IMG/VR virus record: IMGVR_UViG_3300031857_000001
Length of the DNA stretch: 64,000 nt
Strand: one strand, 5' to 3'
From: a virus
Lineage: Duplodnaviria; Caudoviricetes
This document shows positions 29,558 through 37,751 of the stretch, in pieces; the stretch's first letter is position 1, and the number at the start of each line of letters is the position of its first letter. A model generated the notes under the pieces. It did no database searches. It saw only the letters and a list, made by a program, of their open reading frames with translations, and was not told the origin of the DNA. A program made the position numbers and the translations under genes.

Positions 29558-29840
29558 GTCTCCGTAGCTCAGTAGGATAGAGCAACAGCCTCAAAGGGGG
29601 CGTCTGATTAGAAATAATCAGATGGAACTTCTCGAATTCGGTGAAACCTTCCGAGTAATGTCGATGGTAATACCGAGCCAAACCTCAGAAATGAGGAAGT
29701 GTGTAGAGACTAAGTGGGAAGCACCTAAACAAATTAAGTTGAAGGTGATGATATAGTCCAGACCACAAACCGAAAGGGTAGTGAAAACTATAGTGGTATG
29801 TCTAAGCTGTGGGCCACAGGTTCGAATCCTGTCGGGGATA
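29558..29840 (+). tRNA. tRNA-Arg(UCU) interrupted by a group I intron after U33
   Basis: Exon 1 is 29558-29591 (GTCTCCG..ACAGCCT) and exon 2 is 29801-29840 (TCTAAGCTGT..TTCGAAT..CGGGGATA). Joined, they give a canonical cloverleaf with loop CT-TCT-AA. Confidence 0.92.
29592..29800 (+). mobile_element. Group I self-splicing intron (209 nt, no ORF)
   Basis: The 5' splice site follows U, with P1 GCCU|C paired to GGGGC (U.G wobble), and the intron ends in G. Core elements: P GAATTCGGTGAAA, Q AATACCGAGCC, R GTAGAGACTA and S GATATAGTCC. Confidence 0.9.
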
Positions 29841-33042: not shown

Positions 33043-33128
33043 GCCCGGATGCTGAAATGGTATACAGTGCAGACTTAAAATCTGCTGAGCAATCGCTCGT
33101 GAGGGTTCGAGTCCCTCTCCGGGTACCA
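33043..33128 (+). tRNA. tRNA-Leu(UAA)
   Basis: GCCCGGA/TCCGGGT acceptor, GCAGA-CT-TAA-AA-TCTGC, long variable arm, encoded CCA. Confidence 0.95.
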
Positions 33129-33130
33129 AA

Positions 33131-33208
33131 GCACCTTTATCTCAGTTGGTTAGTAGAAGCTCGCTCATAACGAGAAGGTCACAGGTTCGAGTCCTGTAAG
33201 GTGCACCA
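33131..33208 (+). tRNA. tRNA-Met/Ile2(CAU)
   Basis: GCACCTT/AAGGTGC acceptor, loop CT-CAT-AA, TTCGAGT T-loop, encoded CCA. Confidence 0.9.
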
Positions 33209-33530: not shown

Positions 33531-34556
33531 ATGAAAAATAAACTTTTTTTAATTGCATCTTTATTAATTATTAATGGTGGTCTAATCTCCCAAGTACCAA
33601 GTTACGTACCTTCCGAAGGATTAGTGGGTTGGTGGCCATTTAACGGAAATGCGGAGGATGAAAGTGATTATACTAATGACGGAACTGTCTACGGTGCAAC
33701 ATTAACTACTGACAGATTTTTAGAAAATGATAAGGCTTATTCCTTTAACGGTTTTGATTATATTGAGGTTATTGATGATAATACTTTGGATTTAACACAA
33801 AATTTTACCATAAGTGTCTGGTATCTTACATATGATTCAATATCATATGGGGCTATTTTGGGAAAAGGAAAAAATGAAAATTCAACTGGGTACGTCTTAC
33901 TTCATAATGTTTGGGATTTTAATAACAACGAATTAACATTTAACACCGGAATTTCTTTACAAAACAATCCCGATTATGTCACAGCATCGGAGTCTTTTAT
34001 CGACCCTTCATTGATTACCCCAAATACTTGGAACCATTTGGTTTCCACTTATGACGGAAACGAATTAAAACTTTACTTAAATGGGGAACTGGTTAATTCT
34101 ATAAATACGAACATTGAATTATATGATAACTCAACAACTAGTTTGTATTTTGGAAAAGAATTGGTGAATTTTAGATATTTTTATGGTAAGATTGACGATA
34201 TTGGTATGTGGGACAGAGCTTTAACTCGAGAAGAAATAGGAAAAATATTCAACTCGGCCGATTCAACAACCGATGTTAATGACACCTCATCCCCAATTGA
34301 TTTCGGAGATAAGATAGAATGTTATCCAAATCCAACTACAGATATTATTAATGTTGATTTGTCTGGTCTGAACGATTATAGTGGTCAAAAACTAAGAATT
34401 ATGAATTTATCAGGTCAAATTGTTTATGAAGAAAATGTAAACCAAAGTAAGGTTGTTATTGATGTTAAATCATTACTTTCTTCGGGAATCTATGTTCTTA
34501 ACACCGTTGACCAAAATGGTAATGTCTCATCCACAAACAAATTTGTGGTTCAATAA
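33531..34556 (+). CDS. LamG-like jellyroll protein with T9SS type A C-terminal sorting domain
   Basis: Signal peptide, GLVGWWPFNGNA.D, WNHLVSTYDG, GKIDDIGMWDRAL, and CTD CYPNPTTDII...NLSGQIV...SGIYVL...KFVVQ. Confidence 0.92.
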   Translation: MKNKLFLIASLLIINGGLISQVPSYVPSEGLVGWWPFNGNAEDESDYTNDGTVYGATLTTDRFLENDKAYSFNGFDYIEVIDDNTLDLTQNFTISVWYLTYDSISYGAILGKGKNENSTGYVLLHNVWDFNNNELTFNTGISLQNNPDYVTASESFIDPSLITPNTWNHLVSTYDGNELKLYLNGELVNSINTNIELYDNSTTSLYFGKELVNFRYFYGKIDDIGMWDRALTREEIGKIFNSADSTTDVNDTSSPIDFGDKIECYPNPTTDIINVDLSGLNDYSGQKLRIMNLSGQIVYEENVNQSKVVIDVKSLLSSGIYVLNTVDQNGNVSSTNKFVVQ

Positions 34557-36226: not shown

Positions 36227-36383
36227 AAGATGTGGTGAAAAACTTAACCCATTAAAGGCGGTATGGCTTGAGTTATCAATGACCGATGGAAAATACTATA
36301 ATCAAATTCCTGATGGCCACGATAGTCAAGGAGCATTCAGTTTCGGTAAATCATGTGCTAAATCAGAATTAAAAGAAATATAA
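36195..36383 (+). CDS. Small Cys-containing protein
   Basis: CERC...FGKSCA. Confidence 0.6.
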   Translation: MKQNEQTIWCERCGEKLNPLKAVWLELSMTDGKYYNQIPDGHDSQGAFSFGKSCAKSELKEI

Positions 36384-36384
36384 A

Positions 36385-36717
36385 ATGTCAGGAGGAGCAT
36401 TTGACTACAAACAATGGCATATTGAACAAATTGCCGATGAGGTTGAGAAACTGATTGAGAAAAATGGTCGTGAAAAAACACGAGAGGAACTCAAAGAAGA
36501 AGGATGGCGTGTGGATGATTGGTATGAGAAATATCCCGAAGATTTATATCATTACAAATACCCTGATGAAGTAATCGAGAAATTCAAGGAGGGTATGAAA
36601 GCTCTGAGAGTTGCTGCGGTTTACGCTCAACGTATTGATTGGTTGGTATCAGGTGATGATGGTGAAGAAAGTTTTTTGGAAAGATTGAAAGAAGAATTAG
36701 GCCAGTTGGAAAAATAG
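36385..36717 (+). CDS. Conserved phage hypothetical protein
   Basis: MSGGAFDY...RIDWLVSGDDGEESF motif. Confidence 0.75.
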   Translation: MSGGAFDYKQWHIEQIADEVEKLIEKNGREKTREELKEEGWRVDDWYEKYPEDLYHYKYPDEVIEKFKEGMKALRVAAVYAQRIDWLVSGDDGEESFLERLKEELGQLEK

Positions 36718-36731
36718 CCGTATATTTGTAG

Positions 36732-36744
36732 AAGTTCTTTGAAA
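36732..36744 (+). promoter_or_regulatory. boxA-like antitermination element
   Basis: AAGTTCTTTGAAA, 3 nt after promoter TATATTTG (36721-36728). Confidence 0.65.
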
Positions 36745-36749
36745 TCATT

Positions 36750-37115
36750 TAAAGGGTGGGGTGGCAGACGAAAGTTAGATATATCCAAGTCAAACGTAGC
36801 TACGGTGTTTTTAAAACACGATGGATAAACGACAAGTAGAGCTCTAAGGGAACAAGTCGCTATTGTTCCTCCCCCACCGACAACATTATAGGTTGATTGG
36901 GGAATGATTATACCAATAGTTTGAGAGTGGATACCGACTGGTATAATCGGAGTTGGCAGGTATTCACCTGAAGTAATGCCAATCGTAAAAGGGGTTGTCC
37001 ACTCGACCATCTTCCCCTTACCTAAAACACAGAGTGGCGCAGGTTGATGCTACCTTAGCGGGTATACTGATACAGAGTAAAAAGAGGTGGGGGAAACCAC
37101 TCATTAACCCACCCA
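36750..37115 (+). ncRNA. Unassigned ~370-nt structured RNA
   Basis: GC-enriched with no plausible ORF. Terminal helix GGGTGGG/CCCACCC plus several nested long-range helices. Has its own promoter and boxA. Confidence 0.7.
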
Positions 37116-37119
37116 ACAT

Positions 37120-37191
37120 GGTCGGTTCATCTAAGGGTTAGGATACAAGATTTTCATTCTTGTCATAGGGGTTCGAATCCCCTACCGACTA
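37120..37191 (+). tRNA. tRNA-Glu(UUC)
   Basis: GGTCGGT/ACCGACT acceptor and CAAGA-TT-TTC-AT-TCTTG. Confidence 0.92.
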
Positions 37192-37331
37192 CAAAAAGTA
37201 ATATTTATGAAAAAGATGTTTATTAATACACATAGGGAAATAGAAAAAATACTTCACCCATTTGACCCGGTTGGATTTTACGTTCTAATACCTTTTATAC
37301 TAATCCTATTGTATCTGTTTACATAAAAAAT

Positions 37332-37453
37332 AGTCAGGTGGCGGAATGGTAGACGCAGCTGTGATGATTTTGTTGGAAGGTGAATCTCCTTAAACTATTA
37401 GCAAGGTTAATCAACTCCCAATCATCGTACAGGTTCGAGTCCTGTCCTGACTT
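37332..37453 (+). ncRNA. tRNA-like RNA lacking a canonical anticodon arm (122 nt)
   Basis: AGTCAGG/CCTGACT acceptor, class II-type D-arm GCG-GAATGGTAGA-CGC and ACAGG-TTCGAGT-CCTGT T-arm. The centre is a long GATGATT/AATCATC-closed branched arm. Confidence 0.7.
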
Positions 37454-37609
37454 CGCGTTCCGAAACAAATACAACGGATAGTGTGCCCCACACGAAGATA
37501 AACGGAGTGATGTCCGTAGGAGGTTTGGTATCACAGTAAGGCTGTGTACGACTGTTGACTAGTCGGCCCAAGAAAAGGTAAGAGTTGGTGGTACCTTGTT
37601 AGTTAATAT

Positions 37610-37683
37610 AGTCGGATAGCTCAGGTGGTGAGAGCGGCACGCTTATACCGTGATGGTCGTGGGTTCAACTCCCACTCCGACTA
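37610..37683 (+). tRNA. tRNA-Ile(UAU)
   Basis: AGTCGGA/TCCGACT acceptor, CACG-CT-TAT-AC-CGTG anticodon arm and GTGGG-TTCAACT-CCCAC. Confidence 0.85.
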
Positions 37684-37751
37684 CAACTGAAAAACTATAG
37701 TTCATATCTAACTCGCCATTTGTTTAAGATATTTACTATAAAACCTAACAA

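Follow-up and report, generated by a model that had tools for sequence, protein, structure and literature searches.

Covarying pseudoknot RNA modules upstream of tRNA-Glu in an uncultivated jumbo phage

The tRNA clusters of phages have been known since T4 and T5 to contain small stable RNAs of unexplained purpose. T4 rnaC (species 1, 139 nucleotides (nt)) and rnaD (species 2, 119 nt) are co-transcribed and matured with the tRNAs and are not known to have a function. Here we describe a stretch of an uncultivated jumbo phage, a giant freshwater phage, that is directly followed by a tRNA-Glu gene and contains two pseudoknot RNA families. The stretch occupies positions 36750–37115 of a 64,000-nt window, which is the whole of the DNA analysed and corresponds to bases 240417–304416 of a viral record (IMG/VR record IMGVR_UViG_3300031857_000001) that measures 321,403 bp and has direct terminal repeats. 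The stretch is a conserved non-coding RNA. Judged by its sequence and that of its homologues, it appears to be a chain of three modules (A, B and C) folding separately rather than one large RNA.

Modules B and C resemble the T4 RNAs in their position beside tRNA genes and in their size class. In the T4 record, rnaD and rnaC follow tRNA-Arg at gaps of 1 nt and 6 nt, and by analogy the arrangement found here would be compatible with co-transcription and maturation by tRNA nucleases, as with rnaC and rnaD. In contrast to the likeness in position, there is no homology: the covariance models of B and C gave no match in positions 66000–76000 of T4 at E ≤ 1 with filters off, and the host of T4 belongs to another phylum. 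B and C further differ from rnaC and rnaD in that they are pseudoknotted and are here fused in one piece behind their own promoter.

GOLLD and ROOL are large ornate RNAs (Rfam RF02032 and RF03087; Weinberg et al. 2017, PMC5737381; cryo-electron microscopy preprint 10.1101/2024.12.08.627333). Like the present stretch, they are associated with phages or prophages, lie near tRNA genes and have an unexplained function. Unlike them, the stretch is not one large fold, as its modules of about 85–135 nt occur separately elsewhere, and we found neither a conserved terminal helix nor co-inheritance of all parts. A survey of DNA viruses in IMG/VR listed 8,495 covarying candidate RNAs, tRNA-like ones included (Fremin et al. 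2023, PMC10690425). Its unnamed candidates may include module B, and the main text of that survey names no such motif. A full-text literature search for the B core sequence returned no relevant paper, and one for the boxA-like string described below returned primer lists only. B and C are thus covariation-supported pseudoknot RNA families outside Rfam for which no describing paper was found. The locus thereby extends the T4/T5 stable-RNA theme to uncultivated jumbo phages, probably of Bacteroidota, with at least two structurally defined families that offer testable RNAs with defined ends, folds and invariant nucleotides.

Covarying folds of modules B and C

The preliminary description of the stretch, made from the single sequence, had proposed an RNA of about 370 nt without recognisable signatures of RNase P, transfer-messenger RNA (tmRNA), signal recognition particle RNA or group I/II introns. 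This absence is borne out by the Rfam 15 covariance models, which gave zero matches in 36750–37115, both at gathering thresholds and, with lax filters, at E ≤ 10; the families without a match include 6S, GOLLD, ROOL, ribozymes, riboswitches and tRNA. The single-sequence fold is no better than chance, with a minimum free energy (MFE) of −108 kcal/mol, a z-score of −1.72 and 7 of 100 shuffled sequences folding equally well. Therefore the evidence for structure must come from homologues.

A blastn search of the whole stretch against 50,697 GenBank phage records returned no match. BLAST against 38 whole records of related phages gave short matches (E 0.01 or worse) without tRNAs nearby, which we took as chance. 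The flanking upstream gene encodes a protein of 110 amino acids (aa) with 391 relatives in IMG/VR, and the RNA stands beside this gene only in two contigs that are 94% identical (L002 and L003, the same contigs as L107 and L109). Therefore gene synteny offers no route to homologues. More distant relatives were gathered by sequence-pattern scans, and the contig counts that follow are lower bounds; one locus of the second scan, L112, is an unrelated chance match. The helices of modules B and C, all on the + strand, are as follows.

36889–37024, + strand: module B, a phage RNA motif with a three-way junction plus pseudoknot
36889–36892/37021–37024: P1 of module B
36895–36900 (GATTGG)/36979–36984 (CCAATC): P2 of module B
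36906–36914/36940–36948: P4 of module B
36927–36935/36959–36967: P5 of module B, the pseudoknot
36989–36995/37013–37019: P3 of module B, with a conserved 17-nt loop
37032–37113, + strand: module C, an H-type pseudoknot RNA
37032–37037 (GAGTGG)/37097–37102 (CCACTC): S1 of module C
37050–37054/37061–37065: S2 of module C, a hairpin
37086–37091 (GGTGGG)/37108–37113 (CCCACC): S3 of module C, crossing S1

The core pattern of module B, GCCAATCGTAAAA-N5-TGTCCAC, has exact matches in at least 119 IMG/VR contigs. Among 185,579 species genomes it was found in three small contigs of metagenome-assembled genomes (MAGs) only, two of them labelled Bacteroidetes and Sphingobacteriaceae. The fixed core consists of P1 (AGG/CCU), P2 (GAUUGG/CCAAUC), the junction GUAAAA and P3 with the 17-nt loop UGUCCAC-N4-CCAUCU. 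P2 is capped by a variable domain, and the span from AGG to CCU ranges from 73 to 160 nt. The window matches the family core, which reads AGG-UU-GAUUGG...GCCAAUCGUAAAA, a 5-bp stem with the loop UGUCCAC-N4-CCAUCU, the 3' strand of the stem and UU(U/A)CCU. Besides the exact pattern, the family models also detect it (nhmmer 2.2e-30, cmsearch 151 bits). In the class to which the window belongs, the variable domain is the P4 hairpin, whose loop pairs downstream as P5 to give the pseudoknot. No Rfam match at E ≤ 0.05 was found over module B in 14 further loci.

The three-way junction and the P4/P5 pseudoknot of module B covary as a local fold. Across 20 distinct class-1 sequences, 97.9% of cells are paired and 13 of the 35 pairs are compensatory (five in P4, four in P5, three in P3 and one in P1), in an alignment of one length class that is anchored on the exact pattern and whose anchor conservation is partly by construction. 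P2 is invariant in this set and hence uninformative. Slid alignments gave 0–4 compensatory pairs, and no shuffle attains the observed covariation score. Some loci hold more than one copy: two copies of B were found by nhmmer in four loci, and many copies are immediately preceded by a TAGTTTG-type promoter box of their own. In L143, L161, L177 and L183 a second GGTTGATTGGGG motif starts a few nucleotides past the end of B, in the 3' flank.

Module C folds as a covarying H-type pseudoknot. Its metagenome pattern is loose, with 18 of at least 120 matches confirmed by nhmmer (16 distinct sequences), and the alignment comprises 19 distinct nhmmer-filtered sequences from viral and metagenome contigs. 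Here pairing holds in 98.1% of cells, and compensatory changes are seen in 11 of 17 pairs, against at most three in slid controls. S1 and S3 are each 100% paired, with four and three compensatory pairs, and S2 is 93.5% paired with four. Variants include GTGTGA/TCACAC for S1, and GGTAGG/CCTACC and GCTAGT/ACTAGC for S3. The window scores 105 bits and shows the crossing helices S1 and S3, the S2 hairpin and the conserved AGGUUGAU and CUGAUACAGAGU blocks. The block AGGUUGAU occurs in both B and C, as do a hairpin preceded by an A-rich junction (GUAAAA or GUAAAAAG) and, in the loop of that hairpin, CCAC(UC). From these shared blocks, the two may be distant paralogues.

The only long open reading frame (ORF) across the stretch runs on the minus strand (36627–37010, 127 aa) and is open in the window and in L107. 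That the stretch encodes this protein is extremely improbable. No Pfam family matches the ORF. Breaks reduce it to ≤50 aa in L110, its L104 version is shorter, and it lies antisense to all neighbouring genes; the substitutions between relatives are compensatory in RNA stems and not concentrated at codon third positions. We therefore rejected it as a gene.

Long-range helices and the order of modules

The preliminary description had drawn the RNA as one structure, closed by a terminal helix, with nested long-range helices, local hairpins and a 9-bp complement that competes with a local hairpin as a pseudoknot or switch. A sequence check finds every one of these complementary segments where it had been placed.

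36754–36760 (GGGTGGG)/37108–37114 (CCCACCC): proposed terminal helix
TAGGT from 36889/ACCTA from 37020: proposed nested helix
GGGGAA from 36899/TTCCCC from 37012: proposed nested helix
GAGTGGA from 36925/TCCACTC from 36998: proposed nested helix
GGGAACAA/TTGTTCC: proposed local hairpin
GTGTTT/AAACAC: proposed local hairpin
TCCCCCACC from 36870/GGTGGGGGA from 37086: proposed 9-bp switch helix
36755–36878, + strand: module A, a clade-specific 5' domain with the closing helix GGTGGGG (36755–36761)/CCCCACC (36872–36878)

Homologues support the local folds of B, C and one hairpin of A, and they contradict four of the proposed helices: the terminal helix, the 9-bp switch helix, GGGGAA/TTCCCC and GAGTGGA/TCCACTC. 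TAGGT/ACCTA is P1 of module B. The strand TTCCCC at 37012 is the 3' strand of P3 and covaries with 36991–36995, whereas its proposed partner GGGGAA never changes. Within GAGTGGA, GTGGA belongs to P5 and pairs with 36959–36967, and the nucleotides of the P3 loop that would lie opposite vary without compensation. The single-sequence MFE reproduces the proposed helices inside module B, at odds with the covariation. At the 3' end, CCCACC (37108–37113) of the terminal helix is taken up locally by GGTGGG (37086–37091) with 100% pairing and covariation. The GGTGGGGGA strand of the switch helix is likewise paired locally with CCCACC (37108–37113) in 19 sequences.

Module A is limited to a narrow clade (the window, L002/L003, L104, L110 and L229), a pattern scan for the module having contributed just one near-identical contig. 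Its interior consists of ATCCA/TGGAT with two inner hairpins, plus the hairpin GGAACAA/TTGTTCC. The structure is based on four close sequences, and all 28 proposed pairs are formed in all four. The hairpin GGAACAA/TTGTTCC, which the preliminary description had also drawn, gains three compensatory pairs among them. The remaining helices, the closing helix included, are invariant; GTGTTT/AAACAC is invariant too and hence uninformative on covariation. The closing helix of A, GGTGGGG/CCCCACC, has the same sequence as S3 of module C. Because the two are identical, the long-range pairing looks good and is preferred by the nested MFE. In L110, A and C are separated by about 770 nt, with two tRNA-like elements and a small ORF in between, and yet the closing strands of A are retained; therefore local closure of A is favoured.

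The copies in L002/L003 are 98% identical to the window over the first 325 nt, the few changes within hairpin stems being compensatory, and a 93-nt block, module D, is inserted directly after ACCTAAA. The tRNA next to the RNA is tRNA-Lys(CUU) in L002 and tRNA-Glu in the window; therefore the RNA and the tRNA are separate units. The orders found among related loci are as follows.

A-B-C: the window, L104 and L229
A-B-D-C, D being the 93-nt insert: L002/L107
promoter-B-D-C, without A: L111, L105, L106 and L103
A-B-D, tRNA-like element, D', another element, tRNA-like element, small ORF, C: L110
B, tRNA-like element, another element, C: L108
D, tRNA-like element, C, tRNA-like element: L102 and L113

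The modules recombine freely between phages. In L110, C stands about 670 nt past the end of B; C is alone between tRNA-like elements in L102, L113 and L110; and it was not found in 100 other module-B loci. The phage's own genome has one copy each of A, B and C.

Module D itself, of about 90 nt, is not present in the window. It consists of TGTGTTGTTCCCTTGAGAAAGGAA, a variable stretch, ACAACACAGAGG and a small hairpin, and is free-standing and recurrent in many related arrays. A ACACAGAG block is common to module D and the 5' end of module C. The copies located are the following.

L107, 7071–7165: module D
L110, 3438–3524 and 3611–3690: module D, two copies
L102, 9408–9500, − strand: module D

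These observations bear directly on whether the stretch is one integrated RNA of about 365 nt, with the GGGTGGG/CCCACCC clamp and with TCCCCCACC/GGTGGGGGA as a second long-range helix or as a switch against local hairpins. In the window, each of these two long-range helices pairs perfectly and forms part of the nested MFE structure, and the global MFE is 9.6 kcal/mol below the sum of the separate modules. In the narrow clade that carries module A, its closing strands share their sequence with the S3 strands of C, so that a swap of partners is physically possible. The homologues speak otherwise. S1 and S3 of C covary locally, and in phages that have C without A no upstream partner for the helix strands was found within 1.5 kb. 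L110 retains the closing strands of A with C far off, as described above, and L002 has the 93-nt module between B and C. Moreover, covariation contradicts GGGGAA/TTCCCC and GAGTGGA/TCCACTC, and the MFE z-score is unremarkable. We thus regard an integrated RNA as improbable. What had been proposed as a new class of large RNA remains a non-coding, structured and conserved RNA without an Rfam match, but the apparent giant RNA resolves into separately inherited modules. Within the narrow clade, the duplicated GGTGGGG/CCCCACC strands might still let a fused A-B-C piece switch between local and end-to-end pairing.

Promoter, boxA-like element and adjoining tRNAs

The stretch is headed by a putative promoter and a boxA-like element, and is followed by tRNA and other stable-RNA genes.

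36721–36728, + strand: Bacteroidota-type −7 promoter box TATATTTG (TAnnTTTG)
36734–36744, + strand: boxA-like element GTTCTTTGAAA in the leader
37120–37192, + strand: tRNA-Glu(UUC) (ARAGORN and Rfam tRNA, 57 bits)
33043–33208: tRNA-Leu and tRNA-Met (ARAGORN/Rfam)
37610: tRNA-Ile (ARAGORN/Rfam)
38259: tRNA-Cys (ARAGORN/Rfam)
41796–42189: GOLLD RNA (Rfam)
43769–44146, − strand: tmRNA (Rfam/ARAGORN)
29582–29782: group I intron (Rfam)

TAnnTTTG is the Bacteroides −7 consensus, and the transcription start would lie near this box. A 27-nt unit of promoter plus box, CGTATATTTGTAGAAGTT(A/C)TTTGAAA, has two copies in the genome, one directly ahead of tRNA-Leu (33018) and the other ahead of the stretch (36721). 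A similar unit stands ahead of the tmRNA (minus strand, 44152), and the GTTCTTTGAAA box alone precedes the GOLLD region, so that the GOLLD RNA of the same phage, 4.7 kb downstream of the stretch, lies behind the same boxA-like element. The pattern GTT[ACG]TTTGA[AG]A has seven matches in the 321-kb genome, four of which are directly upstream of tRNA-Leu, the stretch RNA, GOLLD and the tmRNA. The homologous RNA arrays in L104, L110, L111 and L158 also start with this promoter-plus-box unit.

We compared the box with 16S loci from 11 genomes of Sphingobacteriales, the order of the Sphingobacteriaceae MAG mentioned above. The motif AGTT[CG]TT[TA]AA, for example GAGAAGTTCTTTAAAGAAAT, stands 160–178 nt upstream of 16S in eight of the eight loci with a leader of at least 178 nt. 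In the five loci whose upstream sequence reaches far enough, it is itself preceded by TACCTTTG-type promoter boxes. In L352–L360, the conserved motif at 160–178 nt before 16S reads AAGTTCTT(T/A)AAA, and TACCTTTG boxes are spaced about 110–125 nt apart in several loci. By sequence, this motif looks like the boxA of that order's rRNA operons. The phage element AGAAGTTCTTTGAAAT is nearly identical to it, and resembles the Escherichia coli boxA consensus GCUCUUUAACAA as well.

The preliminary description had given the RNA its own promoter and boxA, and at the level of sequence this holds: AGAAGTTCTTTGAAA follows TATATTTG, the unit recurs before four stable-RNA units, tRNA-Leu and tmRNA among them, and the box matches the leader motif of Sphingobacteriales, an order chosen from a presumed host. 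Like the boxA of rRNA leaders, the phage element is an 11-nt U-rich box just downstream of a stable-RNA promoter. It differs in that it heads tRNA, tmRNA, GOLLD and module-RNA units, not rRNA. The comparison suggests that stable-RNA units of the phage imitate host rRNA operons in their promoter and boxA layout. Alternatively, the boxA-like element could belong to an extended promoter or to the initial transcribed region.

A simple consensus scan found no + strand terminator-like site in 36300–38600, which is consistent with co-transcription of the RNA with tRNA-Glu and the following genes. The run into tRNA-Glu that the preliminary description had proposed thus stands, with the tRNA 5 nt downstream and no such site in between.

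B and C each represent a recurrent family of phage RNAs, whose members in other phages have tRNAs or tRNA-like elements on either side at a distance of a few nucleotides. A canonical tRNA lies within 40 nt in 49 of 82 unique B copies, and on both sides in 21 of the 82, with gaps of 1–4 nt upstream and 4–7 nt downstream. Adjacency to tRNA is typical rather than universal, and the direct neighbours of B in the window are modules A and C, not tRNAs. The elements that bracket C in most contigs are tRNA-like ones of the AGTCAGG...CCTGACTACA type.

This tight and regular spacing from neighbouring tRNAs, and the position of the modules at the start of or within tRNA arrays, might mean that they act in cis in the tRNA precursor, as folding insulators or as nuclease entry or recognition sites that are later degraded and have no function in trans. 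The failure of the antisense search described below to find a target fits this as well. However, 33 of the 82 unique B copies (about 40%) lack a canonical tRNA within 40 nt, and such elements are missing from most tRNA junctions of the same arrays. In B copies collected from at least 119 viral contigs, the stems change but the junction and loop nucleotides are near-invariant, and a spacer needs neither invariant nucleotides nor a covariation-supported pseudoknot. A purely cis-acting role is therefore unlikely in our estimate.

A tRNA-like element of the bracketing type occurs in the window itself, downstream of tRNA-Glu (37332–37453, + strand). Its acceptor stem is AGTCAGG/CCTGACT, its D arm is of the Leu type and its T arm is normal, and a long insert replaces the anticodon arm. 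ARAGORN and the Rfam tRNA model (E ≤ 10) do not detect it. The same type punctuates the module arrays in L102, L108, L110 and L113, where some copies score as tRNA (36–54 bits).

Proposed maturation and function

We believe, with fair but far from full confidence, that the stretch is the leader of a stable-RNA unit, in which three independent modules are matured by the enzymes that process the adjoining tRNAs. Positions 36721–37192 would be the start of this transcription unit, where a host-type promoter and a boxA-like leader drive a non-coding transcript. As in rRNA operons, the boxA-like element might bring in the Nus antitermination machinery of the host. The transcript would fold co-transcriptionally into modules A, B and C, and then run into tRNA-Glu and further tRNA and tRNA-like genes. 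Cleavage by RNase P at the 5' end of tRNA-Glu would free the upstream A-B-C piece; in other phages, RNase Z or RNase P would free B (about 75–160 nt) and C (about 90 nt) as separate RNAs. The freed RNAs may accumulate as stable trans-acting RNAs. Through their strongly conserved junctions and loops they would engage a conserved partner, protein or RNA, from the translation apparatus, the RNA-processing apparatus or host defence. Because the junction and loop nucleotides of B and C are fixed while the stems change, a specific macromolecular partner can be argued for.

Several points weigh against this leader model. The whole stretch with its long-range helices has a nested MFE of −108 kcal/mol against −98.4 kcal/mol for the modules folded separately, a comparison that leaves both pseudoknots out. 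In the window no tRNA-like elements lie between A, B and C. An antisense search of the phage genome with the conserved B and C loops matched nothing but the RNA itself. The expression of the RNA, its ends and its stability are all predictions. The host is probably of Bacteroidota, and this assignment derives solely from a domain search that placed a C-terminal sorting domain of the type IX secretion system on the phage protein at 33531–34556, together with the labels of the bacterial-genome contigs that carry the B core. A comparison of B and C with Sphingobacteriales 16S and flanking rRNA sequence gave noise only (E ≥ 4).

Compact pseudoknotted folds with invariant unpaired blocks are also the usual signature of catalytic or ligand-binding RNAs, and B and C sit at processing junctions and are not in Rfam. 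B, C or both could thus be a new class of self-cleaving ribozyme or an orphan aptamer, an explanation to which we give little credence. Known ribozyme and riboswitch models are unmatched at E ≤ 10, self-cleavage is unneeded because flanking tRNAs supply RNase P and RNase Z sites, and there is neither a downstream expression platform nor a gene whose control would fit. In a broader form, B and possibly C would be a new functional RNA class with a specific activity, be it as a self-cleaving or tRNA-processing ribozyme, as an aptamer that senses a ligand or a protein, or as a decoy against host defence that targets tRNAs; we offer this as a speculative option with a rather low chance of being right. 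The phages that carry B, put at hundreds in this reading, are tRNA-rich freshwater phages. Set beside these options, the leader model with maturation by tRNA-processing enzymes is the one we retain.

Among the neighbouring proteins, no RNA-repair or RNA-binding partner was found besides a 150-aa protein (39511–39963, + strand) encoded between the tRNA region and GOLLD. It contains a cREC_REC domain (cyclic-phosphate RNA-processing receiver, E 2.5e-19). This domain is linked to RNA-repair systems, and we take the protein as a loose hint only. A ClpB/ClpA-like double AAA+ protein of the phage (46568–48613, − strand; AAA_2, E 1.3e-67) is encoded near the phage tmRNA.

Between tRNA-Glu and the tRNA-like element lies a small ORF of 39 aa (37207–37326, + strand) whose C-terminal half is hydrophobic. 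A similar small ORF is present inside the RNA array of L110 (4486–4608), and the two have an HPFDP motif in common. The ORF may encode a conserved membrane mini-protein within stable-RNA operons. The roughly 155 nt between the tRNA-like element and tRNA-Ile (37455–37609, + strand), which contain no ORF and have no Rfam match, are probably another module of the same operon.

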